Assembly: GCA_930987745.1 (NCBI GenBank) | Contig: CAKNKX010000006.1 | Location: 799 to 64,798, forward strand | From: an uncultured Clostridium sp. | Lineage (GTDB): Bacteria > Bacillota > Clostridia > TANB77 > CAG-508 | DNA length: 64,000 nucleotides | Reading direction: 5' to 3' | Part shown: piece by piece, positions 4,202 through 26,054 of the stretch | How positions within the stretch are numbered: position 1 is the stretch's first letter | Layout of the letters: each line of letters starts with the position of its first letter | Position numbers and translations under genes: made by a program | Notes under the pieces: model-generated | The model's database searches: none | What the model was told of the DNA's origin: nothing | The model's input: only the letters and a program-made list of their open reading frames with translations

Positions 4202-4369
4202 ATTTAGCCCCCAATTTTTATATAAAAATTCGATTTTATTCTATCATAAAAGTATTTTTTTTACAATATCTACAAAATCTCTAGTGAAATAGCCTTTTTA
4301 TTGTTTTATCTCTGAATATATGATAAAATATAACATATTATATAATATATTAATTGTAAAGGAGTTATT

Positions 4370-5305: not shown

Positions 5306-5831
5306 CTAATATTACTTCGCTGTCAAGCCATATTACTTTAACTTTACTAATAGAATAACTATGAATAAACTTTGATTTAGAAATAACATAGATATCTTTT
5401 TCTCCCATTTTGGCTATATAATTAGTATACCCAAGTAATTCAAGAACAGGATTATACATTATTAAGTTGTATTTAACATATAAGAACATTAATATAAAAA
5501 ATATTACCAAAAAGCTTATTAGCTGTTGTTTGTTGCTAAAATCAAACGCTACTAATGGAAGAATATTACTAAAAATATATGTTAAGCTCATTTCTTTCAT
5601 TGGCTTTATATTTGACAACTCTATTTGCTTAACCAAATATTTTTGTTTTTTTATTTTTATTAATATTCCTATAAGTAAAACTACTAATAGCACCATCATT
5701 ATTAATAATGTTAGTAATAATGGTTGCCTATCTAATCTTGTTTCTATATCCACATATTGTATAAATAAAACCAAAAATAATGGCAAGTTAGAAGTAAGAT
5801 ATAAAATATATCTTAAAAATTTATTTAACAT
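5286..5831 (-). CDS. Small integral membrane protein (about 4 TM helices plus a soluble C-terminal tail of about 55 aa)
   Basis: 181-aa ORF. Hydrophobic stretches are LRYILYLTSNLPLFLVLFIQYV, LLLTLLIMMVLLVVLLIGILI, LTYIFSNILPLVAF and LISFLVIFFILMFLYV. It is convergent with, and overlaps, 4370-5305. Confidence 0.6.
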   Translation of the reverse strand: MLNKFLRYILYLTSNLPLFLVLFIQYVDIETRLDRQPLLLTLLIMMVLLVVLLIGILIKIKKQKYLVKQIELSNIKPMKEMSLTYIFSNILPLVAFDFSNKQQLISFLVIFFILMFLYVKYNLIMYNPVLELLGYTNYIAKMGEKDIYVISKSKFIHSYSISKVKVIWLDSEVILVTEILE

Positions 5832-5935
5832 TATTTTCTCCTTTCATTCGTAATTATAACAAATAATTATAATTTTGTATATATTTTTAAGATGAAAACC
5901 AGTGATCATACTGATTTTCATCTAACTTATCTATA

Positions 5936-6892
5936 CTATCTATGTTTATGATAAATACAATTAACTTCAATTGCTATATTTAAATATTTTCTAATATATT
6001 CTACATATTCATAAAAACAAACCACTTTAACTTTTATATCTGAATGAAAATCATCTGTTGCTAAATAATTAAGATAATCCATAAGATAAAAATTTGCAAA
6101 TGGCATATAAAAAATATAAGTATATGCATTATTTTCTTTAATGTAGTACTCTTCAAAAAAACTCTTGGCTTTTAAAGATATTAATTTATCTCCGAAAATT
6201 TCACGCACTTTATTATTCATAAATTTTTCATTTTTTATAATCTCAAAAATCTCCCATGCTTTTTTATTATATGGAATTATATAAGATTCTTTATATCTAA
6301 TTTTTTCAAATTTAGGATTATACAAATATTTTTCATCTTCTGTAAAAACAATTAATCCATTAAATTGGCTTTTATTCCTGTCAATTTCTTTATCAATATA
6401 CTTTAATTCTCTTGGTGTAATATCTTTATGTAGAAAATAAACTATATAAGATCTTTTGAAAAAATCCTCATCACTTTCTTGCCACCATCTTTTTTCTCTC
6501 GACATGACACCAATAAATCTATTACCTCTTTTAGTATAAGTATTTACACTACACCTCCAACTTGGCTCAAAGTACCATCCAGCTAATTGTACTTTACAAG
6601 AAACATCACTAATTCTTTCCATTCTCCTTTTATAAGTTTCATTTCTATTTATATTTCTATAACCTAATCCTATTTTATTTAAATAGCTTTTGCCTTTTCT
6701 TCCTAATACAACTTTTCCATATAATCGTTCTACAAACTCACCCTTTGCTAAACTTGCTAATCTATTTTTATAATAATATTTTGAATCATAAAACAATTTA
6801 ACATTTTCATTTGTAATAATTCCATATTCAGCTAAATACATTATAAAATTGAAATCTCTATTCCTTAAACATATCCTCTTTTCTTTTTCCAC
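5936..6892 (-). CDS. Hypothetical protein of the cryptic element
   Basis: 318-aa ORF with a GTG start preceded by AGGAGGTGA. It is the last gene of the minus-strand replication-module operon. I cannot name a motif. Confidence 0.6.
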   Translation of the reverse strand: MEKEKRICLRNRDFNFIMYLAEYGIITNENVKLFYDSKYYYKNRLASLAKGEFVERLYGKVVLGRKGKSYLNKIGLGYRNINRNETYKRRMERISDVSCKVQLAGWYFEPSWRCSVNTYTKRGNRFIGVMSREKRWWQESDEDFFKRSYIVYFLHKDITPRELKYIDKEIDRNKSQFNGLIVFTEDEKYLYNPKFEKIRYKESYIIPYNKKAWEIFEIIKNEKFMNNKVREIFGDKLISLKAKSFFEEYYIKENNAYTYIFYMPFANFYLMDYLNYLATDDFHSDIKVKVVCFYEYVEYIRKYLNIAIEVNCIYHKHR

Positions 6893-7099
6893 TTAAATCA
6901 CCTCCTACCTTTTTACATTTCTACCTATCTTCCAACTTACTTCTATGCGACAGAAGACACAAGATTACCATCTTGTGCCTCCAGTCGCCCTTACATGTAT
7001 TTATATGTTTTTTCTGTTACGTACTCCCTACCTATGTACAATTTTTAAACACAAAAAATGTCTATTTTGCTTTATTTTTAGGTATTTCTATATTTATTA

Positions 7100-7174
7100 A
7101 AAAGTGTGATTTTTTGAAAGTCCCAAAAGTGTGACTAGTTGGATATTTTAAAATTGATTAATAATCACACTTTT
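7100..7174. repeat. Three copies of AAAAGTGTGA (two direct at 7100-7109 and 7125-7134, one inverted at 7165-7174)
   Basis: Read directly. The inverted copy overlaps the stop codon of the 7165-7788 gene. Confidence 0.7.
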
Positions 7175-7788
7175 TCAAAATATTCTTTAGGATTTATATT
7201 ACAAATATTTTGAATATTTCTTTTTTCTCCAATAAATATTTTTATATAATTTTCTCTGTCATTAATTCCTTCTAACATATAGCTTACATACTTAATATTA
7301 TCATCTGTAATAAGTCCTCCATAAACAAATCCATTAAAAATATATCTTAAATCTCTATTATCTATATCCCAATTATTTCTTGGTACACTTACTTGCACTC
7401 TAATAATAACTTCTTTATTAGCGAATAACCCTTTGTACTTTTCTCCTATTGCTTGGCAAGTATTCTCTAATCTTTTATTATTATAGGGTGTTCTTACTGG
7501 TGGCAATAATTCATGTATCTTTATTTTTAAGATTTCATTTGAATATTCACTTTCATACTGACTTATACCATCTTCTTTTTCTGGTAAAGGTTCTTCTCCT
7601 ATTAATGGTCTTTTTAGTTTTATATATTTATATATCGCATTTCTAAATAATTCTGTTCTGTATAAAACTTGATAAATATTGTGTTCATTTATATCATCTT
7701 GCATATATTCATTTGCAACACTTAAAAACTCGCCTAATCTTTTTCTAAAGTTATTTCTATCATATGTTGCAATTCCTCTCTCAAACAT
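7165..7788 (-). CDS. Hypothetical protein with a RusA-like (Holliday junction resolvase) C-terminal motif
   Basis: 207 aa. NWDIDNRDLRYIFNGFVYGGLITDDNIKYV matches the RusA pattern D-x-D-N, then 17 residues, then D-D, with the same spacing as E. coli RusA (DLDN...LDD). It sits after the DnaC-like gene in a phage-type replication module. Confidence 0.5.
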   Translation of the reverse strand: MFERGIATYDRNNFRKRLGEFLSVANEYMQDDINEHNIYQVLYRTELFRNAIYKYIKLKRPLIGEEPLPEKEDGISQYESEYSNEILKIKIHELLPPVRTPYNNKRLENTCQAIGEKYKGLFANKEVIIRVQVSVPRNNWDIDNRDLRYIFNGFVYGGLITDDNIKYVSYMLEGINDRENYIKIFIGEKRNIQNICNINPKEYFEKV

Positions 7789-7879
7789 TTTTACCTCCTT
7801 CCTAGCTATTTTTTATATTATCCCTCCTAATTTATATTCCATCACTATAAATAGCTACATTATTTTCGAATTTTATATT

Positions 7880-8746
7880 CTATAATCTCTTCCCCTTGCA
7901 TTCCACTCTATAGCACATATTAGATAATCTTGATATTATAGAATCTGTTGTTTTACATACTTTGTTTGGTATGCTTAATCGTTTTTTTAAAGCTTCCATA
8001 TCATAATTTGTTGTTATAATAAATGGTAGCTCATTTATCAATCTTTCATTTATAATTGTAAATAATTTAGACAACAACCAATCATTCATTGGTTCTACTC
8101 CTAAATCATCTATTACTAATAAATCTACTTTTGTATATAATTTTGTTAATTCACTTTCTGTATGATTTTTATAACATATAGCATACTTTTCCACTAATTG
8201 TGTTAATGTTCCAAATATTATTGGTACATTATTCTTTAATAATTCATTACATATCGCCATTGAAATATGTGTTTTTCCTGTTCCATTTTTTCCTACAAAT
8301 ATAATTCCCTTTTTCATATCATTAAAATCTGTTAAAAATTTTTGAGCTGCTAATTTTGTTTTTATATTTTGCTCATCTATAATAAAATTCTCCAAAGTTT
8401 TTTGTTTAAATTGTTTTGTTATAAAATCTGTTCCATAATATTGTTTAATTTTTTTGTTGTATTCTTCTTTTCTAAAATTCTCATATTGTTTCATCAATTC
8501 TTCTTGTAACTTTTCTTTTACTTTTTCTCTTTCTTCTGTTGCTTGTTTGCAATCACATTTTTCATTTTCTATAAATACATTTATACTTTTATTTATTGGA
8601 TTTAATATTCCTCTTGGTTTCAAAACTTTATTACAATATTTGCATCTAGTTGCTTTAGGTATATTTGCTTTTATTGGATAACCGTTTTGCAAGATTTCTT
8701 CTAAACTATATAAAGTCTTTGATTTTTCCATAACTCTGTTCTCCAT
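7880..8746 (-). CDS. DnaC/IstB-like AAA+ ATPase (phage-type helicase loader) with an N-terminal Cys cluster
   Basis: 288 aa with Walker A GKNGTGKTHISMA and Walker B LLVIDDLGVE. N-terminal cysteines are CKYCNK...CDC. It overlaps the upstream replisome-organizer gene. Confidence 0.8.
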   Translation of the reverse strand: MENRVMEKSKTLYSLEEILQNGYPIKANIPKATRCKYCNKVLKPRGILNPINKSINVFIENEKCDCKQATEEREKVKEKLQEELMKQYENFRKEEYNKKIKQYYGTDFITKQFKQKTLENFIIDEQNIKTKLAAQKFLTDFNDMKKGIIFVGKNGTGKTHISMAICNELLKNNVPIIFGTLTQLVEKYAICYKNHTESELTKLYTKVDLLVIDDLGVEPMNDWLLSKLFTIINERLINELPFIITTNYDMEALKKRLSIPNKVCKTTDSIISRLSNMCYRVECKGKRL

Positions 8747-9182
8747 CTTTCACACCTCCTTCTGTTTTTATTTCTTTTTTTAATTCTTTTTCTCTTTCTA
8801 TATCCACATTTTTTACATCTTTTGTGGAATCTTTTTTAATATGTAAGCCTTTCTCCTGTAGATTTTGATACTTATTCCAATTTTTTATTTTATAGCCATA
8901 TTCATCTTGTATAATCATGCTATATTCCTGGAAAATATCTAGTGCATTCTCGATACTTTTCTGATTTCTACCCATATGATGTGCTAATGTTTCTATGGTA
9001 AAAAACTTATTTTCACTTATTTTTAAATATCCTCCAGATTCACAATTTGCTGCTATTGCTAAACAATTTATAAAAATTACAATAAGCCTATCTCCATCCT
9101 TTTTTCTTTTAATTTGTTTGATCTTCTCATTGTCAAAAAAATTGTTGTAAAACTTAAACCAATATCTTTTTCCTCCTTTCAC
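8706..9182 (-). CDS. Phage replisome organizer / DnaD-like N-terminal domain protein
   Basis: 158 aa. The N-terminus RYWFKFYNNFFDNEKIKQI...LIVIFINCLAIAANCESGGYL fits the YWFKL..FFD..KI pattern of phage replisome organizer N-terminal domains. It lies directly upstream of the DnaC-like gene. Confidence 0.65.
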   Translation of the reverse strand: MKGGKRYWFKFYNNFFDNEKIKQIKRKKDGDRLIVIFINCLAIAANCESGGYLKISENKFFTIETLAHHMGRNQKSIENALDIFQEYSMIIQDEYGYKIKNWNKYQNLQEKGLHIKKDSTKDVKNVDIEREKELKKEIKTEGGVKDGEQSYGKIKDFI

Positions 9183-9217
9183 TAATAATCACCTACCTTC
9201 TTAGTAAAATACTTTTT

Positions 9218-9457
9218 TTAGAAATTAGAAAAATCATATTTTACTTTTTTCTTTGGTTCTTCTAGACTATCTTGAATATATTTGTCTAGAATTTCTTTTG
9301 TGAATAGTGTTTTAGATTCAATTTTGTAATATGGTATTTTCTTTTCTCTTACTAATTTACGAATTAGCCAATATGAAATACCCAAATATTCTGCTGCTTC
9401 TACTGAATCTAAAACTCTTTTTTCTTTTGTGTTTTCATTTAATTTCTCACTATTCAT
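9218..9457 (-). CDS. Excisionase-type (MerR-like) helix-turn-helix DNA-binding protein
   Basis: 79 aa. VLDSVEAAEYLGISYWLIRKLVREKKIPYYKI is a typical Xis/AlpA-like HTH. It is the first gene of the operon divergent from the repressor. Confidence 0.7.
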   Translation of the reverse strand: MNSEKLNENTKEKRVLDSVEAAEYLGISYWLIRKLVREKKIPYYKIESKTLFTKEILDKYIQDSLEEPKKKVKYDFSNF

Positions 9458-9623
9458 ACTATCACCTCCTTCTTTATTCTCATTATGCGTACATAATATA
9501 ATATTTTATTTGTTTTGTAAATACTTTTTTTGAGATTTTTTATGATTATTTTAGTTTTAAATGTTTACAAATAGTATTTTATTGTATATAATGTCCTTAA
9601 TTAGTGAGGGGGAAATTTTTACA

Positions 9624-10604
9624 ATGGATAAGTTTAATTTTGGTAATCGTTTGAAACAATTGCGTAAATCATATGGTATTACACAAGCACAATTAGCAGA
9701 AAATTTAAATGAAAGAAGGGCTACTTTATCAAATTACGAAAATAAGAATGTGTATCCAGGATTTAATATGTTAATAAAATTGGCTGATTATTTTCATGTT
9801 TCTGTTGATTACTTAACAGGAAGAACTGATGATTATGAAGTCAATAAACATGATAAAGAAGATACTTTTTATTGGGTTAAAATCTCTAAACCAATACCTT
9901 ATGAAAAAAATAAATATGGAATTTATGCTTTATCTAATGATACTGATATTGAATTTTATGATTTATCAGATTTGAAGAAAAAATATACTAGAATTTATTT
10001 ACCTTTTTTGGGATGTGCACCTGATGCTAAATCTCATTTAAAAGAATGTTATGACTTTTTATCTGAATTTGGATTTTTAGGTGGTACTGAATATAATGAT
10101 CAGTATTTAAATGTTTCTATGTTTAAAAAGCAATGGCCTGGAATTTATAAAATAAACAATGAATTTAATATTTCTACTATGGATTTTTTAGTAAATTTAG
10201 TTATGATGGATCCTAATCTATTTAGTAGTTCAAAAGAAGAAAAGGCTTTTGCTAAAGAACATTCACTAATGGGCTATAGAGAAACAATTCATGATGTTGA
10301 ATATTTAGCAACAGAAATGAAATCATTAGTAACCATTTTTTTACTTTACCCTAGTATATTTATATCTAGAACAAATGAGAAACTTAGAGGTATTAACTTC
10401 TATTATGATAATTCTTATAAAAGAAGGTTTACTTTTACTTCTCTTCTTTCTTATATGTATTATGAACTAATAGAAGATTATATTAATGGGTATTATCCTT
10501 ATAAATGCAATAAATGTAATAAATATTTTTTATCTAGAATAAAGGATAATCCTGAATTACCACATATTTGTGATGATTGTAAAAAACAAGGAGGTTCATT
10601 ATGA
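9624..10604 (+). CDS. XRE/cI-type HTH repressor with a large C-terminal domain ending in a Cys4 cluster
   Basis: I moved the start to the ATG at 9624 (MDKFNFGNRLKQLRKSYGITQAQLAENL), which has a GAGGGGGA RBS about 10 nt upstream. The track start at 9561 would overlap the TTTACA-17-TATAAT promoter. The C-terminus contains CNKCNK...CDDC. Confidence 0.8.
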   Translation: MDKFNFGNRLKQLRKSYGITQAQLAENLNERRATLSNYENKNVYPGFNMLIKLADYFHVSVDYLTGRTDDYEVNKHDKEDTFYWVKISKPIPYEKNKYGIYALSNDTDIEFYDLSDLKKKYTRIYLPFLGCAPDAKSHLKECYDFLSEFGFLGGTEYNDQYLNVSMFKKQWPGIYKINNEFNISTMDFLVNLVMMDPNLFSSSKEEKAFAKEHSLMGYRETIHDVEYLATEMKSLVTIFLLYPSIFISRTNEKLRGINFYYDNSYKRRFTFTSLLSYMYYELIEDYINGYYPYKCNKCNKYFLSRIKDNPELPHICDDCKKQGGSL

Positions 10605-11086
10605 TAAAAATAATAGAATATGATTCGATCTATGATGAACAAATAAAAGACTTATTAATAGAATTACAAAATTATCTTATTGATATAGATGATTGGCATA
10701 CTCAAATTTTATCAGACAACTATCGCGAAGATTACTTTAAAATGGATTTAGAACTTATTAACAAACAGAATGGAAAAATATTTTTAGCAATTGAAGATAC
10801 TAAAATTATAGGATTAGTTCTTGGTGCTGTAAATCTAAATGATGAAATAGACAAACTAACAAATGATTGTGCTAAAACAGGTAATGTATTAGAACTAATA
10901 GTTAAAAATTCTTCACGTGGTCATGGCATTGGAAAATTGCTCTTAAAAAAAATAGAAAATCATTTTAAAAGTATTAATTGTAAAAGAATAAACATTGAAG
11001 TTTTTGGTCCTAATAAAAGTGCTTTAGACTTTTATTTAAAGAACGATTACATAGTTAGAGATTATATTGTAAGTAAAAAAATATAA
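10601..11086 (+). CDS. GNAT family N-acetyltransferase
   Basis: 161 aa with motif A SSRGHGIGKLLLKKIE. It overlaps the repressor stop by 4 nt (ATGA). Confidence 0.8.
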   Translation: MIKIIEYDSIYDEQIKDLLIELQNYLIDIDDWHTQILSDNYREDYFKMDLELINKQNGKIFLAIEDTKIIGLVLGAVNLNDEIDKLTNDCAKTGNVLELIVKNSSRGHGIGKLLLKKIENHFKSINCKRINIEVFGPNKSALDFYLKNDYIVRDYIVSKKI

Positions 11087-11116
11087 TACTTATTATTTAT
11101 AGAAAAGGGTGATTAA

Positions 11117-11617
11117 ATGAAATCTAAATATATTAGACAAGGCATTATTTTTACTATTGATATGATGTTTCTTCCCTTGATTATAACTTTACTTTCAAAT
11201 AATTGGGAACCCATAGCTAATTTCAATGATGGATTGCAACGTTTTATTACATATATTGCTATTTATGAGTTTTTAGCCTTTTTAATAAATAAAAATCAGC
11301 TAGACGCTAGGAAAGATAGTTTATTAATCTATATAACTATTTTAAAAGAAACATTATTATTCATTGAAAATCCTGGCTTTACAACTTTAAAAGATAGCAT
11401 ATTAAATAAAATAAATAAATTGAATGACAAATCATATTATTTCATTCATGAAGATGTATTAAAAGCCGTAAATTCAATAAAATTAGGTATATCTAACAAT
11501 AATTTAACAAATAAAAAAGCTTTTTTAGAAGCTGAATTAATTAATGCAGAACATCACTATGAATCAGAAGGTTTGTCTTGGAATAATACACTTTTATTAA
11601 AGTTCTTAAAAAAATAA
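11117..11617 (+). CDS. Hypothetical protein (N-terminal hydrophobic segments)
   Basis: 166-aa ORF between the GNAT and integrase genes on the same strand. No recognisable motif. Confidence 0.5.
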   Translation: MKSKYIRQGIIFTIDMMFLPLIITLLSNNWEPIANFNDGLQRFITYIAIYEFLAFLINKNQLDARKDSLLIYITILKETLLFIENPGFTTLKDSILNKINKLNDKSYYFIHEDVLKAVNSIKLGISNNNLTNKKAFLEAELINAEHHYESEGLSWNNTLLLKFLKK

Positions 11618-11634
11618 TATGTCTTCCCTACCAC

Positions 11635-12843
11635 ATGAAAGGAGGTGATGAAGGTGTGGTAGGAAATATCGAAAAACGTGGAGAGAATTCATACAGATTA
11701 AGAGTTTCTGGTGGATATACAGGAGAAGGAAAAAGAATTATCTATAAAAAGACAGTTCAAGCCAAAAACAAAAATGAAGCTAGAAAAGAATTAGCATTAT
11801 TTATATCAGAAATAGAAACAGGTCAAGCTTTATCTGCAAAAAAGATGCGTTTTAGGAATTATGCTGATTTTTGGATTGACCATTATGCAATTCCAAATTT
11901 ATCTCCTAAAACCTATGAAAGATACAAAAGTATGTTAAGGTCAAGAATTCTCCCCTATCTCGGCAACATGTATTTAGACAAAATTCAACCAATGCAATTA
12001 ATGTATTTATACCAAGAATTGAGTGAGGCAACTTATATTAGAAAAAATATCAAACATAAATTATCTCCCAAAACTGTACTAGAACATCATAGATTATTAC
12101 ATTCAATGTTACAACAAGCAGTATATTGGCAAATGATTCCATATAATCCTGCATCAAGAGTAAGGCCACCTAAAGCTAAAAAAACAAGTATTAATTTCTA
12201 TGATGATGTACAAACAATAGCATTAATAAAAGCATTGGAAGGTGAAGAATTAAAGTTTCGTGTAATTATCCTATTAACAATTTATACAGGATTAAGGCGT
12301 GGCGAAGTTTTAGGATTAGAATGGCAAGATGTAGACTTTAAAAATTCTTCAATCACTGTAAGACAAGCTAGTCAATATGTTTCTTCTATTGGAATTTATA
12401 CAAAAGATCCCAAAACAGAAACATCAAACAGGGTTATTAGTATTCCTGATTCAATTACTAAATTATTAAAAGAATACAAAAGAAAACAATCAGAAAAAAG
12501 ATTAAAATTAGGAGACAAATGGATTAATACTAATCGTTTATTTGTACAATGGGATGGTTCTCCTATGCATCCAGATACAATTACAAAATGGTTTAGGCAG
12601 TTCCTAGAAGATAAAAACTTGCCACATATTACATTTCATGGATTACGCCATACACATGCAACTTTGCTTATTGCACAAGGATTAGATGTTAGAACTGTTA
12701 GTAATAGATTAGGACATGCTCAAACATCTACAACATTAAATATCTATGCCCATGCATTCGCGAGAATGGACAGAGAGGCATCAGATAAACTTGATAATCT
12801 TCTTTATAGGGAAGATACAAAAAAATATTTTAAAGCCAATTAA
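11635..12843 (+). CDS. int: Tyrosine-type site-specific integrase
   Basis: 402 aa. The catalytic region contains LRRGEVLGLEW (Arg I) and HGLRHTHATLLIAQGLDVRTVSNRLGHAQTSTTLNIYAH (H-x-x-R ... H ... Y). Confidence 0.92.
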   Translation: MKGGDEGVVGNIEKRGENSYRLRVSGGYTGEGKRIIYKKTVQAKNKNEARKELALFISEIETGQALSAKKMRFRNYADFWIDHYAIPNLSPKTYERYKSMLRSRILPYLGNMYLDKIQPMQLMYLYQELSEATYIRKNIKHKLSPKTVLEHHRLLHSMLQQAVYWQMIPYNPASRVRPPKAKKTSINFYDDVQTIALIKALEGEELKFRVIILLTIYTGLRRGEVLGLEWQDVDFKNSSITVRQASQYVSSIGIYTKDPKTETSNRVISIPDSITKLLKEYKRKQSEKRLKLGDKWINTNRLFVQWDGSPMHPDTITKWFRQFLEDKNLPHITFHGLRHTHATLLIAQGLDVRTVSNRLGHAQTSTTLNIYAHAFARMDREASDKLDNLLYREDTKKYFKAN

Positions 12844-13000: not shown

Positions 13001-13175
13001 ATTTTATTTCAAATAGAATTTAATCAAATATATTTATAAATATCGAAAATTCAAGGTTTACCAAAAACCTTTTTATATAGATTTGTGCCCAAATGGTGCC
13101 CAATTCATTTTATGTAATGTAAAATGAGCAAAAAATAAAGAGTCCACAATCTCTTGCGACTCTAAGTTTAAATCT

Positions 13176-13220
13176 TGGTTGCGGGGGTAAGACTCGAACT
13201 TACGACCTTCGGGTTATGAG
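13176..13220 (-). pseudogene. Orphan 3' half of initiator tRNA-fMet (anticodon-loop core CTCATAA through CCA)
   Basis: The reverse complement is ctcataacccgaaggtcgtaagttcgagtcttacccccgcaacca. It differs at one base (g for a in the variable region) from the 3' part of the intact tRNA at 25979-26054. No 5' half follows it. Confidence 0.85.
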
Positions 13221-13361
13221 AAATGGAATGCATTTTTCGTTTTTTCTATTATGTTTTAAAGAGCGCTATTCTGTATAGTTACAGCATAACACTCTTTTAT
13301 TATCTACTAATAATTCTATTATTTTTTAGGTTGGTAGGGGTATTTTTAGGGGTAAAACTTC

Positions 13362-13793
13362 TTATTCCTCATATTCGATATTATTTTTCTGACACCATTC
13401 TATTGCCATATTTTTTAGATACTCTTCTCTAAAATTATAGTAATCATTTTCTATTCTAAATTTCCTTAATGTTTCTTTAAATCTCCTATATTTTCCTTTG
13501 CCATAAAATGCATCCTCTAATTCTTCTTGTATATTTTCATTTTTTATTTCATCAATATATTCTTCTACCAATTCTGAATCATGAAATACATATGAACTTG
13601 GTAAATAATAATATCTTTCTTCTTCGTCTTCTTCTATTTTATCAGTTAATTCTTCATATTCTTGCATTGACATCATATTAAGATCTATAAAAATAAAATC
13701 ATTTTTCTTTTTATCATATACAATATACTCATAATTCTGTATTTCATCAAACATATCAACTAATTCATCTAATTTAAGTTTCATGTTTTTCAC
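13362..13793 (-). CDS. Small acidic protein, UPF0158-like (assignment from memory)
   Basis: 143 aa and highly acidic (EEDEEERYYYLPSSY...). The C-terminal segment is YGKGKYRRFKETLRKF. It starts 7 nt after the stop of the AEP-helicase gene, so the two are probably co-transcribed. Confidence 0.6.
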   Translation of the reverse strand: MKNMKLKLDELVDMFDEIQNYEYIVYDKKKNDFIFIDLNMMSMQEYEELTDKIEEDEEERYYYLPSSYVFHDSELVEEYIDEIKNENIQEELEDAFYGKGKYRRFKETLRKFRIENDYYNFREEYLKNMAIEWCQKNNIEYEE

Positions 13794-13800
13794 TCCCTTC

Positions 13801-16146
13801 TTATTCTATAATCTCATATCCTGCAATTTTATATCCTTTTAATCTTCTATTATACATCTTTTCTAGAACTTTCATATTATCTAAATAATCATACACTATT
13901 ACTTTCTCTTTATCTTCATGCTCTCTATGCAATCTTCCTACGTATTGTATAATTCTTCCTTTCCATGAAACTGGCATAGTTAGAAATAATGTATCTAATC
14001 TACTATCATCAAATCCCTCTCCTATTGAACTACTTGTTGCTAATATTATCCTTGGTTTATTGTTTTTATCTGCTTCATCTATGACATCTTGAATTTCTTT
14101 AGTTTTCTTTTTTCCCATATTCCCCTTATACGCCACCACTGGTACATTTAAATTTTCTAAATTTTCCTTCAAAACTTTTAAATGTTCTACTCTTTCAGTT
14201 AATACTATAGGAACTCTACCTTCTAAAATGCATTTATTTATATCTTCTATTATCATACTATTTCTAAAAATATTATGGCACATATCGTTAAGGATTTCTG
14301 AAATTTGTATTTTATCTTTTTCTTCAGTTGGAATGTATTTATAATTAGTCTTTTTTACAATTACTGTATGTTCCATTTCTTTATTCTGTTTTAATTCGCG
14401 ATGGCTTACCCTAACTCTTATATCGCCACACTGCATATATATTATTTTATGCCATCCATCTTTCCTTGTTGGTGTTGCAGTTAAACCATATACATGTTTA
14501 CTTCTTACAGCTTTTAATACTTTTTCGAAGCTATATGCAGCAGCATGATGACATTCATCTACAATAACTAATCCATAATCTTTAACTAATTCTTCCAAAT
14601 TATCTTTTTTAAATAAAGATTGAAAACTTGCAACATCTAATTTTCCATTTGGTTTTTCTTTACCGCTACCAATTTGTCCTATTTCTTTTTTATTTATATT
14701 TAAAAAATATGATAACCTTTCTTTCCATTGTTCTAACAGATTATTTCTATTAACTATAACTAATGTATTAGTTTTTAATTCTGAAATAATTTTAGCTCCC
14801 ACTACTGTTTTTCCAAATCCTGTTGTAGCACATAATACTCCTACATCATGTTTTAGTAATTCTTTCATTGCTTTTTCTTGCTTATTATTTAACTTTCCAT
14901 CAAACTTGTAGTCTGTTCTAATTCCATTTTCTCTTGTATCTTTTACTATTAAATTGACATTGCTTTTTTTACATATTTCTGAAACTTTATCTATACAACC
15001 TCTTGGCAATTTCAAGAATCTTTCATCATCTTCAAAACAGCTTATTATTCTAGGTGTTGTTTTATAAAATATTGGCATTCTTAATTTTTGTAATTCATAA
15101 AATTTCGGATTAGTGAAACTGGCTAATCTTTTTAAATAAGTTATTTCATTTGGTAGTAATTTTAATTTTTTAATATATATTTGATTATCAAATATGCACT
15201 CCACATTGTTTGTAAATATAGTATCTTTAATATTTTCCTTTTTAGGTATTTCATCATCATCTAAGATTTCTTCTATTTCAGGTTCTTTATAATCATCTTC
15301 TTTGTATTTATCAATAAATGCATATATTTCATTGCATTTCATTCTTTTTATATTGTTTAAAATGTTTATTTGATTTTTCTCTACTTCAAAATATTTATCT
15401 ACAAAAACTGTATTTCCACTTTTACTGCTTTCACCTTGAAATGGTAAAGCTATTAAATTTCCAAATCCGCCTTTTGGCATTGTATCTTGGTTTGGAAATA
15501 ATCTATCATATGAATCCAAGTCCAAAGATGCTTTTTCCATTGTCTTAGTTAATAGTATATTACCCATTTTTCTAGCAATTCTAGCTGGTATACTTTCCTC
15601 AAAAAATATCCAAATATGTGCTCCATTTCCTGAACGAGATTTTTCTACATATATTGGTATATCTGATTCATCACATATATTCCAAAATGCAGCTACATCT
15701 TTTTCGAAAGTTTTCTTATCAAAATCTATTGCTAAAAAATTACATAAATCTCCTGGTAATAATGGATATATTCCTATTGTAATCTCACCCTTTAAATGCT
15801 TTAAGATTATATCCTCTGTTAATGGTGTTAGTTCTCTAAAAGGACATTCATTACATTTTACTCTTGGCTTATCACATTTATATGTACTAAATTCATTCTT
15901 ACAAACTGGTGAATATCCTGATTTTCCAGTTTTATTACTTGTCCATCTTTTTGCATATAAATCAGTTCTTCCCTTAAATACTTCCATAAAGATTTTTACT
16001 TTTTCTTCATTAGAAATAACTTTTTCTTCTTTTTCAACTTCTTTTTCTTCTATTTTTCCATATAGCTTCTCTTTTAATTCATTATTTTCTTTTTCTAATT
16101 TTTGTATTATTTGTATCAATTCTTTTTTATCTAAATCCTCTAACAA
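13801..16146 (-). CDS. Archaeo-eukaryotic primase (AEP/PrimPol)-like domain fused to an SF2 DEAD/DEAH-box helicase
   Basis: 781 aa with an N-terminal coiled coil and Cys cluster (CKNEFSTYKCDKPRVKCNEC). AEP motifs are LAIDFDK (DxD), SRSGNGAHIWIFF (sGxGxH) and FPNQD...GFGNLIALPF. Helicase motifs are ATTGFGKTVVG (I), VIVDECHHAAA (II), GLTATPTR (III) and QYVGRLHR (VI). Confidence 0.85.
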   Translation of the reverse strand: MLEDLDKKELIQIIQKLEKENNELKEKLYGKIEEKEVEKEEKVISNEEKVKIFMEVFKGRTDLYAKRWTSNKTGKSGYSPVCKNEFSTYKCDKPRVKCNECPFRELTPLTEDIILKHLKGEITIGIYPLLPGDLCNFLAIDFDKKTFEKDVAAFWNICDESDIPIYVEKSRSGNGAHIWIFFEESIPARIARKMGNILLTKTMEKASLDLDSYDRLFPNQDTMPKGGFGNLIALPFQGESSKSGNTVFVDKYFEVEKNQINILNNIKRMKCNEIYAFIDKYKEDDYKEPEIEEILDDDEIPKKENIKDTIFTNNVECIFDNQIYIKKLKLLPNEITYLKRLASFTNPKFYELQKLRMPIFYKTTPRIISCFEDDERFLKLPRGCIDKVSEICKKSNVNLIVKDTRENGIRTDYKFDGKLNNKQEKAMKELLKHDVGVLCATTGFGKTVVGAKIISELKTNTLVIVNRNNLLEQWKERLSYFLNINKKEIGQIGSGKEKPNGKLDVASFQSLFKKDNLEELVKDYGLVIVDECHHAAAYSFEKVLKAVRSKHVYGLTATPTRKDGWHKIIYMQCGDIRVRVSHRELKQNKEMEHTVIVKKTNYKYIPTEEKDKIQISEILNDMCHNIFRNSMIIEDINKCILEGRVPIVLTERVEHLKVLKENLENLNVPVVAYKGNMGKKKTKEIQDVIDEADKNNKPRIILATSSSIGEGFDDSRLDTLFLTMPVSWKGRIIQYVGRLHREHEDKEKVIVYDYLDNMKVLEKMYNRRLKGYKIAGYEIIE

Positions 16147-16321
16147 AGCTATCTCACTCCTTTTTAATATCTCTATTTTATCATATTTTTGAATTTTAAT
16201 TAAATTATGTAAATTGTGTTGAATTATTTTATTTTCTGTGCTATATTAATTATATTATTTTCATATATTTTTTCTTTAATCTTCCCCACAAAAAAATTTC
16301 ATAGGAGGTGACTTTATAGTT

Positions 16322-16663
16322 TTGAATTTATTTGAACCAATTATAAATAGCTTAGATAATGCTATTCATAAAAGTAATTTAAAAGATTCTTTTATAGATG
16401 ATTTTATTCATGATTTACAAAGATATATGCTAAGGCAAAATTTGGATTATGATTATAGTAAACTACCTAAAAGTACTATATTTGAAGTTGATTATATTGA
16501 AGATGGTTTTGCTTCTTGTTTAGACACTTCTCAAAAACATTCAGAAAAATATTGCATTCCTTCAGAACTTCTTGACGAATCTGCCAAAAAAGCTGATTAT
16601 ATTCAATTTGATGGTACTAAATATACTGCTGTTTCTAATCCTTATCAAAAAGATTCTAACTAA
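16322..16663 (+). CDS. Hypothetical protein
   Basis: 113-aa ORF with a TTG start 9 nt after an AGGAGGTG RBS. It is divergent from the AEP-helicase gene. Confidence 0.5.
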   Translation: MNLFEPIINSLDNAIHKSNLKDSFIDDFIHDLQRYMLRQNLDYDYSKLPKSTIFEVDYIEDGFASCLDTSQKHSEKYCIPSELLDESAKKADYIQFDGTKYTAVSNPYQKDSN

Positions 16664-16790
16664 TTTTAATAAAAAAATAAGAACATATATCAAATATGCT
16701 CCTATAACTTACCTTATTTGCTCCATCTAAATTTAACTCTTTTAATTTTTCAATTATTATACTATTACCATCACTTTTAAGCCATATAGT

Positions 16791-17213
16791 TCACTGATTC
16801 TTTGTTATAAATATATTACTTTCTTCCACTCCTGCTTCTTTTAATCTTTCTATGACACTTTGATCTGGATGGTTATAATTTTCATTATTTCCCGCAGATA
16901 TAATTGCATAAGTTGGTTTTACTATGTTCAAAAATTCACTTGATGTCGATTCTTTTGCTCCATGATGTGCAACTTTTAGTACGTCTACTTTTTCCAATCC
17001 TTTTATTTTACTATCTATACTATCTGTTATGTCTCCTGTAAATAAATATTTTGTACTTCCATAATCAAGTTTAATAACTATTGATGTATCATTAAATCTA
17101 TTTTTGTCGCTTGAATTAGAATTGTCAACATTTAAACATTTCCATATTGCATTTCCTAACTTATATTCTTTGTCTTCTGACTTTTCTATTTGTTGCTTGT
17201 TAATATGTATGTG
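16791..17213 (-). pseudogene. 5'-truncated metallo-beta-lactamase-fold (ComEC C-terminal-like) gene fragment
   Basis: The minus-strand frame is open from about 17213 and reads ...IVIKLDYGSTKYLFTGDITDS...VDVLKVAHHGAKESTSSEFLNIVKPTYAIISAGNNENYNHPDQSVIERL. This matches the TGD and HHG motifs of MBL/ComEC domains. The N-terminal part is missing and the frame ends at the IS terminus. Confidence 0.7.
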
Positions 17214-17219
17214 TCAAGT

Positions 17220-18918
17220 AAATGTAGGCAATTTTTTTATCTTTTTTTCTAATCCTTTAAATGCCATTGCTTCCAACACTTTATTTATTTTTTTGTTCTT
17301 TTAATAAACAAATTAATAACTTAATCTTAATTCGCTTATATCTCTACATTTCAATATTTTATTTATAAAATTATTTTCTATATGTCCTTTTTGTATTCCA
17401 ACTCCTTCTTTTGTTTTTTCTGTTGCTACAAAACTATCTTTTCTCGTTCTATTTTTTCTTACATTTTCTTCTATTTCTTTTATCCAATCTTCTACACTTG
17501 TATCTATTGGTATTGGTGTTTCTAATTCTTCTAAACTAAACTTTTCGCTTAATACACATATCTTTGCTAATGCATTTGCTCCATGCTCACTAAACGCTTT
17601 TCTTCCACTACAAAATCTTTTCTTTAATTTACTAAATATCTGACTTTCTTGTGTTCCCATATTTCTGTATTCTACTCCTTCTGGTGCCTCTGGTACTTCT
17701 ACTATATCTTGATATCTTTCTAGTCCACTACTTAAATAGCTTTGTAATGTATTTAATTTTTTTACTGCTTTATATTCTCCTCCTAATTCTACTTTTAATC
17801 CCTCTATTGTTTTTTCTATCTTATCATATTGTTTTGTTTTCACTAATTCTTCTACTATATTTCTATATTCTTTTGGTACATCCCTTACTATTTCTTGCAT
17901 TATATGAAACTGATCCTTTTGATATATTCTTCCTTTTGCTGTTATTCCTTTTGTCCACTTCGCTCCATCTCCATTTACTACTCTTAATTTTATTTTCTCT
18001 ACATCATATTGTTGATATACTCTTGCATCTCTTAATTTCTTTATTTCTTTTGGTTTCATCATTCCTGCTATATATTGCTTATTTATTAATGGATGCCTTT
18101 TATCATCTTTTTTCCACCCTTCATACATTACATGCAGTTTTAATTCTGTTTTGATTTTTTGCTTTGGATTAAATTCTTTGTTTTCTTTTTCACATTTCTT
18201 TTTATTTTCTTCTAATCTTTCTTTTCTATCTTTTCCTTGTAAATTTATCCACAATCCATCTGCTTCTTCAAACAGTGCTATTATTTCCTTCAATCCTGCC
18301 ACTAGTTGTCCCTTATCCAACATTTTCCTTTCTTCTTTTTCTTTCTTTGTTATTTTGTCTCCCAATTTTACTACAATATTTCTTATCCATTCAAAACTTA
18401 ATGTCGCATTTGTTGTTTCTTTTAGTACTGTTTCTGCTTTTCTATATGAATCTGTTATTGGTACTGTTTCTACTATTTTTTCTACTAAATTTTCTGATGC
18501 TTTTCCTTCTGTATTTATATGCAATTTTTCATCTAGTAAATACACTCTTTTCTTAATTCCTTCTTCCTCAACCTCATACATTGCCCTTACATATTCTACT
18601 TCTCCCATTACTGTTTTTATTGTATTTTTTCTTAATCCTTTATGCCTATATTTCTTCGTATCTCTGGCTTTCATTATCTTTCTGCCATAACTTTCTAAAA
18701 TTAATTTTATTATTAAACATCCAAAATTACATACAAATTTAAATATTTTTTTCTCTAAATTATTGAATTTTATTTCTTCTTCTGTTACAATTTCTTCAAA
18801 CATAGATATTTTCCTTTCTTTTGTGTGGTTTGCAATTCACATTTTAAAGGATTATCTATGTTTTTTCAATATTTTTTAGATAAAAATTATGTAGGCATTT
18901 TATATTTTGCCTACATTA
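17220..18918 (-). mobile_element. ISLre2-family-like insertion sequence (approximate ends)
   Basis: A single transposase gene is flanked by inverted termini, AAATGTAGGCAA (17220-17231) and TTGCCTACATT (18907-18917). No clear target duplication was seen. Confidence 0.55.
17313..18803 (-). CDS. ISLre2/UPF0236-family transposase
   Basis: 496 aa. The N-terminus MFEEIVTEEEIKFNNLEKKIFKFVCNFGC...KYRHKGLRKNTIKTVMGEVEY resembles UPF0236/ISLre2 transposases of Clostridia and Thermoanaerobacter as I remember them. Confidence 0.7.
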   Translation of the reverse strand: MFEEIVTEEEIKFNNLEKKIFKFVCNFGCLIIKLILESYGRKIMKARDTKKYRHKGLRKNTIKTVMGEVEYVRAMYEVEEEGIKKRVYLLDEKLHINTEGKASENLVEKIVETVPITDSYRKAETVLKETTNATLSFEWIRNIVVKLGDKITKKEKEERKMLDKGQLVAGLKEIIALFEEADGLWINLQGKDRKERLEENKKKCEKENKEFNPKQKIKTELKLHVMYEGWKKDDKRHPLINKQYIAGMMKPKEIKKLRDARVYQQYDVEKIKLRVVNGDGAKWTKGITAKGRIYQKDQFHIMQEIVRDVPKEYRNIVEELVKTKQYDKIEKTIEGLKVELGGEYKAVKKLNTLQSYLSSGLERYQDIVEVPEAPEGVEYRNMGTQESQIFSKLKKRFCSGRKAFSEHGANALAKICVLSEKFSLEELETPIPIDTSVEDWIKEIEENVRKNRTRKDSFVATEKTKEGVGIQKGHIENNFINKILKCRDISELRLSY

Positions 18919-21929: not shown

Positions 21930-23159
21930 ATGAAAGAAAATATAAAGTTAAAAAATATGAAAGGACAATTAGAAATAATGAAAACCTTAGGAATAAAGCC
22001 GAATTTTAGTGAATTAGAAAGAGCTTTTGAAATAGAAAGACATACAATAAAAAAATATTATGAAGGATATGAAGGAAAAAAAGCAAATAGAAATAAACCA
22101 TCGAAATTAGATAAATATTATGATGAAATTAAAAGTAAAATAGAATTAGTAGGAATTACTCAAATGGGATTGTACCAATATTTATACAATAAAGATAATT
22201 CCATAGGAACTTATTCAAATTTTAAAAAGTATTTAACAAAGCATGAATTAAAACCAAGTAAAAGTCAAAAAGTTCATTTAAGATATGAAACAGATTCCGG
22301 AGAACAGTTACAATTTGATTGGAAAGAAGATATAAAGATGATCAGCAAACATGGAGAAGTATTTGAATTTAATGTATTTTCTGCAACTTTAGGATATTCT
22401 AGATTACATGATTTTGTATATAGTAGAACAAAAACCAGAGAAGATGTAGAAAGATGTTTAATGACAACATTTAAATTTTTCAATGGTGTACCTAAACAAT
22501 TGTTAATTGATAACATGAGAGCAGTAGTTGATATTAATGGAAATAAAAGAACAGTAAATCCAGAATTTAATCAATTTGCTAAAGATATGGGTACTTGTGT
22601 GAAATTATGTAAGCCAAGGTCTCCTGAAACGAAAGGAAAAGATGAAACAGCCAATAAGTTCATGTCATGGTTAATACCATACAATCATGAATTTGAAGAT
22701 GAAGAAGAATTAATTAGAATTATTAAAAATATAAGAGATAAAGTTAATTCTACTGTTCATCAAACAACTAATGTACCACCTATCCTTTTGTTTCAAAAAG
22801 AAAAAGAATATCTTCTACCTTTGCCAAGCAATAAAGTCATGCTTTCTTACTTGGAAAATGTGGAGAAAACTAAGGTTTATCCCGATTCCTTAATTTACTA
22901 CAAAGGTAAAAAATATTCTGTTTCACCCAAATATATTAATCAGTATGTCCAATTAAAACAAACTGATAATATATTGTATATATATCATAATAAACAAATA
23001 ATAGCAACACATGAAATCAATTTAAAATTAATAAATTATGCTAAAGAACATTATGTAGAAGGTTTAACAATTTCTATGCCATATAAAGATAGATCTGACA
23101 TAGAAAAATATGCTAATGATAATTTGAAACGTTTAGATAGATTATTGGATGTAAAATAG
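21930..23159 (+). CDS. istA: IS21-family transposase IstA
   Basis: 409 aa with an N-terminal HTH and a DDE region (QFDWKE...LLIDNMRAVV...ETKGKDE). Confidence 0.9.
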   Translation: MKENIKLKNMKGQLEIMKTLGIKPNFSELERAFEIERHTIKKYYEGYEGKKANRNKPSKLDKYYDEIKSKIELVGITQMGLYQYLYNKDNSIGTYSNFKKYLTKHELKPSKSQKVHLRYETDSGEQLQFDWKEDIKMISKHGEVFEFNVFSATLGYSRLHDFVYSRTKTREDVERCLMTTFKFFNGVPKQLLIDNMRAVVDINGNKRTVNPEFNQFAKDMGTCVKLCKPRSPETKGKDETANKFMSWLIPYNHEFEDEEELIRIIKNIRDKVNSTVHQTTNVPPILLFQKEKEYLLPLPSNKVMLSYLENVEKTKVYPDSLIYYKGKKYSVSPKYINQYVQLKQTDNILYIYHNKQIIATHEINLKLINYAKEHYVEGLTISMPYKDRSDIEKYANDNLKRLDRLLDVK

Positions 23160-23209
23160 ATAAAGGATTTAAATAATATAAAATTAATAAAAAGAAAGAG
23201 GTAATTTTT

Positions 23210-23971
23210 ATGATATATAATCAAGTAATAAATAATTTACAAAAACTAAAATTAAATAAGATGAGTACATATTTATCAACATATTTAGATGAGATAAATA
23301 AAAATAATATTTCCTTTTTAGATGCACTTCTTAATCTTACTCAGAAAGAAATAGAATTTAAAGAACAAAGAGCTTCTGAATTTAATATACGAGTGGCTGG
23401 GTTTCCTTTTATTAGAACTTTAGATGAATTTGATTTCGATTTTCAACCAAGTATTAATAAAAAAGAAGTTTTAGATTTAGCAACACTTAGATTTATTGAA
23501 GAGAAGAAAAATGTTTTGTTAATTGGGTCTAGTGGTGTTGGCAAAACGCATATTGCAACAGCCATTGGCATTGAAGCTGCTAAAAAAAGAGTTAGTACAT
23601 ATTTCATTAGTTGTCATGATTTAATCACTAAACTTAATATTGCACATCAAGAAAATAGATTAAAGGATGCTTTAAAAACATTTAATAAATATAAGTTATT
23701 GATAATTGATGAGATTGGATATTTACCTGTAGACAAAAATGGTGCAAATTTACTGTTTCAATTAATTGCAAAAAGATACGAAAAAAGTTCTACCATAATA
23801 ACTACAAATCAGCAATTTTCTAAATGGGGAGAAATTTTTTCAGATAATATACTTGCTAATGCAATACTTGATAGATTATTACACCATTCGTATGTTTTTA
23901 ATATTACAGGTGATTCTTACAGATTAAAAGATATATTAAATAAAATGGAAAACTTTGACAATTCTATGTAA
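23210..23971 (+). CDS. istB: IS21-family helper ATPase IstB
   Basis: 253 aa with Walker A GSSGVGKTHIATAIG and Walker B LLIIDEIGYLP. Confidence 0.92.
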   Translation: MIYNQVINNLQKLKLNKMSTYLSTYLDEINKNNISFLDALLNLTQKEIEFKEQRASEFNIRVAGFPFIRTLDEFDFDFQPSINKKEVLDLATLRFIEEKKNVLLIGSSGVGKTHIATAIGIEAAKKRVSTYFISCHDLITKLNIAHQENRLKDALKTFNKYKLLIIDEIGYLPVDKNGANLLFQLIAKRYEKSSTIITTNQQFSKWGEIFSDNILANAILDRLLHHSYVFNITGDSYRLKDILNKMENFDNSM

Positions 23972-25978: not shown

Positions 25979-26054
25979 CGCGGGGTGGAGCAGTTGGCAG
26001 CTCGTTGGGCTCATAACCCAAAGGTCGTAAGTTCGAGTCTTACCCCCGCAACCA
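25979..26054 (+). tRNA. Initiator tRNA-fMet (anticodon CAT)
   Basis: 76-nt cloverleaf. There is a C1-A72 mismatch (CGCGGGG...CCCCGCA-A-CCA). The anticodon stem has three G-C pairs, GGG-CTCATAA-CCC. The T-arm is GGTCGTAAGTTCGAGTC. These are hallmarks of bacterial initiator tRNA. Confidence 0.93.

Follow-up and report, generated by a model that had tools for sequence, protein, structure and literature searches.

The locus described here raises two questions: what is the role of a protein that joins an AEP polymerase domain to an SF2 helicase-like domain beside a broken tRNA-fMet gene, and does it act together with the small acidic protein encoded directly downstream? The genes lie in a 64,000-nucleotide stretch of DNA from an uncultured Clostridium sp., referred to below as the window. 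An earlier note, made from these DNA letters, had read the pair as a candidate conflict or mobile-element replication module. Both open reading frames and every motif that it quoted were found as described, and the AEP/SF2-helicase fusion is real. By sequence comparison, however, the larger protein is a relative of a known polymerase-ATPase fusion, the IS-excision enhancer (IEE) of Escherichia coli; the observation stands but is for the most part unremarkable, and conservation of the two-gene module as a system is not borne out. The general features of the locus are as follows.

13801..16146, minus strand: putative IEE-family gene, 781 aa, with an AEP polymerase domain and an SF2 ATPase/helicase-like domain (Pfam AEP-TOTE, ResIII/DEAD and Helicase_C)
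15322..16005, minus strand: AEP (Z1568-like / AEP-TOTE) domain, residues 48-275 (PF22548, E 9.9e-94, profile positions 1-228 of 230)
15844..15903, minus strand: four-Cys cluster C82, C91, C98 and C101 within the AEP domain (conservation in homologues)
13924..14895, minus strand: SF2 ATPase/helicase-like core, residues 418-741, XPB/RadD-like (ResIII, E 3.9e-29, and Helicase_C)
13362..13784, minus strand: small acidic gene, probably of the UPF0158 family, with a 140-aa product read from ATG 13784 (ORF, homologue starts, ribosome-binding site)
13793..13797, minus strand: GGGAG ribosome-binding site of the small gene, within the 16 nt that separate this gene from the IEE stop codon
13176..13220, minus strand: 3' half of tRNA-fMet, running from the anticodon loop, where it is cut, to CCA; att core at the integrase-element junction
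13129..17206, no strand assigned: conserved 4-kb block with a DUF3006-like ORF, the IEE gene, the UPF0158 gene and the tRNA fragment (97% identity to related locus L104 over 17206-13129)
11635..12843, plus strand: tyrosine integrase of the adjacent integrative element, outside the IEE block (Phage_integrase, E 7.7e-30)
8706-9182: replisome organiser of the adjacent element
7880-8746: DnaC/IstB-like ATPase of the adjacent element

The 781-aa reading frame opens with a TTG codon preceded by AAGGAG about 10 nt upstream. A database cluster with 415 member sequences is 100% identical to its product, and relatives are publicly annotated only as 'DEAD/DEAH box helicase'. The N-terminal 47 residues are rich in E and K and heptad-like. 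In the AEP half the motifs LAIDFDK, SGNGAHIW, FPNQD and GFGNLIALPF start at residues 138, 172, 217 and 227, and in the helicase half GFGKT, DECH, TATP and QYVGRLHR start at 443, 530, 556 and 734. Alignment with 16 diverse homologues shows that the AEP catalytic residues (D141 and D143 of motif A, H177 of motif B and D221 of motif C) are all invariant, as is C82 of the cysteine cluster, a possible metal site whose other members are each at least 90% conserved. Among solved structures, the AEP domain is nearest to that of M. piezophila CAPP (7nqd, E 2.5e-15), although CAPP lacks an SF2 fusion, and the helicase half matches archaeal XPBII (6p4f, E 3.8e-23). The latter half also matches XPB/Rad25, RadD and UvsW, with the XPB and RadD NCBIfam matches falling below cut-off. 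No nuclease domain was found in the protein.

Comparison with IEE of E. coli O157 (786 aa) by BLASTP shows 40% identity and 58% positives (587 bits) in a collinear, end-to-end alignment of window residues 7-780 with IEE residues 14-778. The named IEE residues D142, D144, D216, H178, Y128, K451 and R735 all have identical counterparts, which are invariant among the 16 diverse homologues: the AEP residues pair as D141/D142, D143/D144, H177/H178 and D221/D216 (window/IEE), the ATP-binding Lys of GFGKT is K446 (IEE K451), the Arg finger in QYVGRLHR is R738 (IEE R735), and Y127 in GIYPLL aligns with Y128 in GMYPLL. IEE itself matches PF22548 over the full model (E 1.7e-98). The two proteins share this Pfam AEP family, an XPB/RadD-like SF2 half and the same two-domain architecture without extra domains, and both are carried as cargo of integrative elements. 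They differ in that the window gene comes from a Firmicute host with about 25% G+C, has a UPF0158 gene directly 3' of it where none follows IEE in E. coli, and shows no IS3-family element nearby.

The E. coli enhancer is ECs1305 / Z1568 of strain O157:H7 (Kusumoto 2011; Calvo 2023, PMC9943667).

Although the earlier note knew of no demonstrated function for the arrangement, IEE, 40% identical over its whole length, has published genetics and biochemistry. It stimulates IS excision in a transposase-dependent manner and acts alone; the IS families excised are IS3, IS1 and IS30, and nearby deletions also arise. It is a DNA-dependent ATPase without unwinding activity, and published homologues span many phyla, Firmicutes included. 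The enzyme is a Mn-dependent polymerase whose end joining requires both domains, and its Y128 is a Tyr that replaces the ribose-sensing His (PMC9943667).

We conclude that the 781-aa gene is probably a member of the IEE family that works as a self-contained single-gene unit, although 40% identity to IEE does not guarantee the same role in vivo. Homology, residue conservation, architecture and gene context are seen in the window itself, and what the protein would do biochemically and to IS elements is carried over from E. coli IEE; on this footing we envisage that the AEP domain would extend mispaired or dislocated 3' ends, while the C-terminal XPB-like SF2 domain would act as a DNA-dependent ATPase that does not unwind duplexes and would assist in joining up two 3' single-stranded ends. 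Both domains jointly would then bring about microhomology-mediated end joining or strand switching, with the outcome seen in E. coli of more transposase-dependent excision of IS3, IS1 and IS30 elements and deletions nearby. None of these known targets was seen near the window gene; the elements that do lie nearby are a UPF0236-type IS at 17313-18803 and an IS21 element at 21930-23971, and no large repeats, which would point to several IS copies, were found in the window.

The earlier note was right to place the pair on the foreign, inserted side of the broken tRNA-fMet. The 4-kb block stands in place of the tRNA 5' half, and the integrase-bearing element is inserted at the tRNA 3' end; the IEE gene is cargo of this block. 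BLAST homology to related contigs stops at the tRNA fragment, with end points at 13175, 13169 or 13129, and locus L136 has the same upper breakpoint, 17206, as the L104 block. The exact 45-nt att core was not found in related loci. In the window, an intact tRNA-Met at 25979-26054 contains the core in inverted orientation. The claim that no replication or phage genes surround the pair does not stand, since the integrase, the replisome organiser and the DnaC/IstB-like ATPase of the adjacent element lie across the junction. The element also carries HsdR and a KwaB-like gene. In L010 and L104 the integrases that occupy the corresponding place are only 65% identical in DNA to the one in the window.

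Read from GTG 13793 (13362..13793, minus strand), the small gene encodes 143 aa, and this is the form that had been placed 7 nt downstream. Its homologues begin at MKLKL and GGGAG lies 8 nt ahead of ATG 13784, so the product is most likely 140 aa and the spacer 16 nt rather than 7. The protein is very acidic (pI 4.4; 39 D+E versus 19 K+R; net charge -20) and is encoded directly downstream. Co-transcription with the IEE gene is probable on account of the 16-nt gap, the dedicated ribosome-binding site and the lack of any terminator-like site between the genes. PF03682 (UPF0158) gave no reported match for the window protein, whereas homologues of that protein at 56-94% identity reach 29-33 bits, above the cut-off of 21.1 (33 bits for those with 94% identity), and a plasmid relative with 28% identity carries the annotation UPF0158 family protein; on these matches we tentatively assign the small gene to UPF0158. 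Its AF2 model has a pLDDT of 90.4, with no PDB or BFVD fold match reaching E 0.001, and a PDB sequence search with the small protein returned nothing useful. No UPF0158 match was found in phages by tblastn. UPF0158 was tried as a relative of PRiA4_ORF3 and rejected (profile comparison probability 0.3%).

The small gene, which the earlier note called a partner, is not conserved as one when related loci are compared. UPF0158 is present at none of 77 diverse IEE-homologue loci, is mostly missing from relatives with 75-87% identity, and adjoins an intact IEE gene with readable flanks in none of 13 sampled close relatives (L004, L007, L095-L103, L105 and L108). Its only downstream occurrences among the sampled close relatives are next to an IEE copy with a frameshift (L104, 97%), one truncated by the contig (L142, 91%) and remnants left by deletion (L010-L014), and in the last group the UPF0158 gene is intact while the IEE gene is degraded. 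In L173, a UPF0158 gene (60% identity) lies 1.3 kb from an IEE gene (69% identity). Mobilisable elements and plasmids also carry UPF0158 in the absence of IEE. Elsewhere it follows unrelated genes, namely those for a SEC-C protein, for proteins of 330 aa and 86 aa and for a protein with a SWIM-like Cys/His motif, and in other close relatives another small gene, PRiA4_ORF3, lies 7 nt upstream. From these comparisons the small gene is a lineage-specific neighbour found only with the closest sub-lineage, and not a conserved partner; it would be a passenger of a mobile-element cargo slot.

The IEE family is very large, with 150 or more full-length clusters at the 50% identity level, drawn from many phyla. 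A survey of 136 immediate neighbours at 77 homologous loci, again from many phyla, yielded no recurrent partner gene, and the homologues travel as single genes. They show neither linkage to the small gene nor embedding in replication modules. In line with the earlier suggestion of a conflict setting, they do lie among defence-type genes: adjoining genes include AbiE (AbiEii in 7 of the 136), DUF4143/PDC-S01 ATPases, Schlafen-like genes (AlbA_2-HATPase), ZorD/DpdE-like SNF2 helicases, restriction-modification genes such as those for XamI restriction enzyme and Dam methylase, and integrases. Plasmid homologues sit among IS, TA and Tn7-like (TniQ) genes and not at the replicon, and some close relatives adjoin HTH_36 and Mob_Pre genes, or lie near RepA_N, in small mobilisable elements. 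No full-length homologue was found in 50,697 phage records, since none of the 1326 matching records covers 80% of the protein. An extra C-terminal domain, PLD-like or DUF559, is carried by 76 of the top 150 representatives, which hints at a conflict role wider than IS excision, although the catalytic HxK is kept in only 6 of 63 aligned PLD-like tails and most have lost it. These tails of about 145 aa were considered as fused UPF0158 domains and rejected, the UPF0158 profile matching none of them.

How far do these observations favour other roles? The protein could be mainly an anti-phage or anti-plasmid immune effector that uses its translocase and polymerase activities to sense invading DNA or act on it, with IS excision as a side effect. 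Pfam names the AEP domain after a conflict system, a PADLOC PrimPol model listed as Cas-associated matches it (1.3e-86), and both the defence-type neighbours and the C-terminal tails described above would suit such a role, as would HsdR and the KwaB-like gene in the adjacent element. We nevertheless consider it somewhat unlikely: no defence phenotype for the family was found in the literature searched, the TPR, OB and TBP partners of a conflict system are absent here and not recurrent at the 77 loci, the window protein has no nuclease domain while few PLD-like tails retain HxK, and location in a variable island is expected of cargo with any function. A broader version, in which IEE proteins are general anti-mobile-DNA immune effectors with IS excision as one visible outcome, and in which lineage-variable small coupled genes (UPF0158, PRiA4_ORF3) or a fused, mostly inactive PLD-like tail serve as modulators or inhibitors, seems to us distinctly doubtful.

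That the acidic UPF0158 protein binds the polymerase-ATPase and restrains or directs it, perhaps by mimicking DNA or by regulating it much as an antitoxin would, is likewise quite improbable. E. coli IEE works alone, no homologue carries a fused UPF0158 domain, all 77 diverse loci lack the small gene, as do most relatives with 75-87% identity, it follows unrelated genes elsewhere, and in L010-L014 it outlasts the IEE gene. The same-strand arrangement with its short spacer, dedicated ribosome-binding site and lack of an intervening terminator, the joint occurrence in L104, L142 and L010-L014, the nearby genes in L173, the comparable placing of PRiA4_ORF3 and the net charge of the small protein speak for such a pairing, and the spacer and ribosome-binding site leave room for a functional link in this lineage. 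Both a defence role and a partnership with UPF0158 are candidate readings only. Least probable of all, and in our view very unlikely, is a primase-helicase role, be it in the replication of a mobile element, as the earlier note had also proposed, or in priming synthesis of the complementary strand once transfer has taken place. AEP-helicase fusions are typical of mobile-element replication proteins, and there are the relatives beside HTH_36 and Mob_Pre or near RepA_N; but the helicase is of the XPB/RadD-like SF2 type and not SF3, D5, MCM or DnaB, E. coli IEE does not unwind, the phage matches fall short of full length, plasmid homologues lie away from the replicon, the adjacent element brings a replisome organiser and a DnaC-like loader of its own, and there are related loci with a degraded IEE gene in which the genes of the neighbouring element persist.

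The reading as a single-gene IEE-family member also bears on a second name for this family. The mention of TOTE-type systems in the earlier note was correct for the domain, which matches the full PF22548 'AEP-TOTE' model, and the context is island-like, but not for the system. TOTE stands for TPR, OB, TBP and Effector (Aravind, Iyer and Burroughs 2022, cited by PMC12458937), and by the definition given in that citing text the window differs: scanning of 20 window ORFs between 1448 and 23971 found no TPR genes (at E 0.01-0.001) and no OB/cold-shock or TBP genes, and none of the three families is among the 25 commonest families of the 136 neighbours. No cas genes were found among the scanned neighbours, and NCBIfam PrimPol_Msp scores 101 bits, below its cut-off of 200. 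The Pfam 'TOTE conflict system' AEP family and the E. coli IS-excision enhancer are the same protein family, although the names were not found used together in the literature searched. The window gene can now carry the label IEE-family gene rather than DEAD/DEAH box helicase, and, should the biochemistry of IEE apply in Firmicutes as well, genes of this kind could influence the IS load of gut Clostridia and how deletions form in them.

Replicative AEP primase-helicases (pRN1 ORF904 and DUF927/D5-type fusions) resemble the window protein in having an AEP domain fused to an NTPase on mobile DNA, although the window helicase is an SF2 enzyme that is not ring-forming and its gene lies outside a replication module. 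The Thermus ICETh2 PrimPol was considered as a relative and rejected, as it belongs to a different AEP family; in Meiothermus elements related to ICETh2, the PrimPol is fused to a DUF927 helicase domain.

In a tblastn search of plasmids, 98 records matched the window protein over at least 80% of its length. Among them is a 786-aa gene of E. coli O157:H7 EDL933 that lies beside AlpA, YfjI and IS66 genes, and whose architecture was matched in the literature to IEE, the IS-excision enhancer (ECs1305/Z1568; Kusumoto 2011; Calvo 2023, PMC9943667). IEE as published is a 786-aa protein in which residues 1–290 form a Z1568-like AEP domain and residues 291–786 an SF2 domain. Residues 7–780 of the window protein align with it at 40% identity (587 bits), and IEE residues D142, D144, D216, H178, Y128, K451 and R735 are identical at each aligned position. 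An IEE-family polymerase-ATPase with IEE-like biochemistry is the best explanation for the window protein, and probably the right one.

13801–16146, minus strand: IEE-family gene, 781 aa (TTG start, AAGGAG ∼10 nt upstream)
15844–15903, minus strand: four-Cys cluster C82/C91/C98/C101 (CX8CX6CX2C), conserved in 16 diverse homologues

Both ORFs described in the earlier note are present, and all of its quoted motifs were found, those of the AEP domain at residues 138–236 and those of the helicase at 443–741. The 781-aa protein is identical to a database cluster with 415 member sequences. Its Pfam matches are a full-length one to PF22548 ('AEP-TOTE', E 9.9e-94), which bears out the AEP domain family named in that note, followed by ResIII/DEAD and Helicase_C. 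E. coli IEE also matches PF22548 (E 1.7e-98), and because both proteins do so, the Pfam 'TOTE' AEP family is the family of the IEE AEP domain. Against PDB sequences, the AEP half matches the M. piezophila CRISPR-associated PrimPol (7nqd, E 2.5e-15) and the helicase half archaeal XPBII (E 3.8e-23); NCBIfam matches of the helicase half to XPB and RadD are both sub-threshold. By alignment, the Cys cluster (residues 82–101) is kept across the IEE family, E. coli IEE included. It may be a metal site that matters for priming; the biochemical paper on IEE ascribes Zn fingers to other PrimPols only.

When an active transposase is present, and only then, IEE increases excision of elements of the IS3, IS1 and IS30 families; adjacent deletions also arise through it. 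DNA synthesis by its AEP domain depends on Mn, is error-prone and tolerates dislocated primers and templates. The C-terminal domain hydrolyses ATP in a DNA-dependent manner, with undetectable unwinding, and both domains are required to join 3' overhangs that share 4 bp of homology or more. Two models have been put forward, end joining once the transposase has cut and strand switching in the copy-out step. Homologues were already known from many phyla, including Firmicutes.

At E 1e-10 the number of 90%-identity clusters in the family exceeds 8000, a lower bound, and 2641 representatives at 50% identity pass E 1e-30. Nearly all of the best 150 of these are matched over their full length, and 76 of the 150 (P0173–P0316) carry a C-terminal tail of 104–213 aa, identified as PLDc_2 in P0173 and as DUF559 in P0183 and P0275. 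Tails in about half of the full-length representatives are PLD-like, with DUF559 in a few. Among the 63 PLD-like tails that could be anchored on a conserved ID...WYG motif, only six retain the catalytic HxK. Neither E. coli IEE nor the window protein has the tail, and the IEE papers cited here make no mention of a PLD-like or DUF559 tail.

The small acidic gene reported in the earlier note does lie directly downstream, although its length and spacing needed revision. As listed, the ORF has 143 aa from a GTG at 13793. Homologues begin at MKLKL and a GGGAG ribosome-binding sequence lies 8 nt upstream of an ATG at 13784, which makes 140 aa the most likely product length and puts the spacer from the IEE stop codon at 16 nt rather than 7 nt. 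No terminator-like site was found between the two genes. The pI of the protein is 4.4, and its net charge is close to −20. Close homologues reach the gathering score of PF03682 (UPF0158), and hmmscan reported no PF03682 match for the window protein itself. Its AF2 model is confident (pLDDT 90.4), and the fold has no match among PDB or viral folds.

Linkage of the two genes was assessed in three samples. At 80 loci from many phyla (one genome per species; IEE ORF in 77), a UPF0158 profile and jackhmmer found UPF0158 at 0 of the 77. Among metagenome contigs of close relatives, only L104 (97% identity) and L142 (91%) have it downstream of IEE. L095–L103, L105 and L108 (75–87%) lack it, and at these loci the genes next to IEE are AbiEi/AbiEii, PRiA4_ORF3, Schlafen-like ATPases, MBL-fold hydrolases or a Dam methylase. 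The third sample comprised contexts of UPF0158 genes themselves. In L010–L014 UPF0158 is intact and the adjoining IEE fragments are degraded; in L175–L180 it precedes HTH_36 and Mob_Pre, without IEE; in a Vescimonas plasmid the gene before it encodes a SEC-C protein; in a Bacillus plasmid no annotated gene adjoins it; and in L173 it comes after the gene for a 582-aa protein with a SWIM-like Cys/His motif, with a 69%-identical IEE gene 1.3 kb away. These samples thus show UPF0158 to be a mobile, promiscuous family, whose adjacency to IEE is restricted to a narrow lineage. A conserved partnership finds no support at the diverse loci, and a lineage-specific functional pairing, which the arrangement in L104 and L142 would fit, is quite improbable. 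Small mobilisable elements of Clostridia (L004–L006, L097–L098, L175–L180) have an HTH_36 and Mob_Pre backbone with a variable cargo slot. Two kinds of content occur in it: PRiA4_ORF3 with IEE, or a series in which AbiE or a DUF4143 ATPase comes first, then a small unknown gene, then UPF0158.

The conflict-like context proposed in the earlier note is seen at homologous loci. The commonest families of 136 immediate neighbours at the 77 loci are AbiEii (7), ResIII helicases (5), DUF4143/AAA_14 (3) and integrases (3); Schlafen AlbA_2 with HATPase_c_4 accounts for three more, and PADLOC gave further PDC-S01, pAgo-associated and ZorD/DpdE-like matches. The IEE family therefore has island-like, defence-rich surroundings, yet is a single gene. 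A primary defence role, with which such neighbours agree, is rather unlikely. TOTE, spelled out in a citing paper (PMC12458937) as TPR, OB, TBP, Effector, is a system to which membership is unsupported: TPR, OB and TBP families occur neither in the window ORFs scanned (1448–23971) nor among the commonest neighbour families. A replication role, the other reading offered, is likewise unsupported and highly unlikely. Matches to pAgo-associated models fall in three neighbours, and a 261–441-aa protein without a Pfam match lies downstream of IEE homologues at five of the 77 loci (including L026, L035, L050 and L052).

Features at the junctions of the IEE block and in neighbouring elements
13176–13220, minus strand: tRNA-fMet 3' half, anticodon loop to CCA; att core
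16322–16663, plus strand: 113-aa ORF, weak DUF3006 match; divergent from the IEE gene, block-linked in L104
16791–16997, minus strand: short ORF within 16700–17200, by eye resembling a ComEC-type MBL-fold C-terminal end (VLKVAHHGAKESTS...)
17313–18803: UPF0236-family transposase gene (UPF0236-type IS), ∼1.1 kb upstream of the IEE gene, just past the block
1448–12843: integrative element left of the tRNA fragment, other end outside the window
1448–4201: type I restriction R subunit (HsdR), in the integrative element
4370–5305: KwaB-like gene, weak match, in the integrative element
21930–23971: IS21-type pair, rve plus Mu-transposase C-terminal domain gene, and IstB
62249–62365, plus strand: pemK RNA motif (Rfam, 45.9 bits against a gathering score of 34.8)

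Homology with related contigs ends at 17206 on the upper side and at 13129–13175 on the lower, and to the left of the block the integrases are just 65% identical to those of the related contigs; the tRNA fragment therefore goes with the IEE block. The block takes the place of the tRNA 5' half, the arrangement that an older insertion would leave at its far junction. The att site is held by a separate integrative element, which also carries an integrase, GNAT, a repressor-like HTH-DUF6076, HTH_17, a replisome organiser and a DnaC/IstB-like ATPase. The break at 17206 relative to L104 and L136 is consistent with IS insertion or a different junction. The ORF at 16791–16997 has no Pfam match and looks like a gene remnant between the block and the IS; L099 and L105 have intact MBL-fold genes directly downstream of IEE. 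An intact tRNA-Met (25979–26054, plus strand) contains the same 45-nt att core with one mismatch, inverted and 12.8 kb away. Since tandem integration would yield direct repeats, the inverted core may reflect an inversion or a second tRNA-fMet gene.
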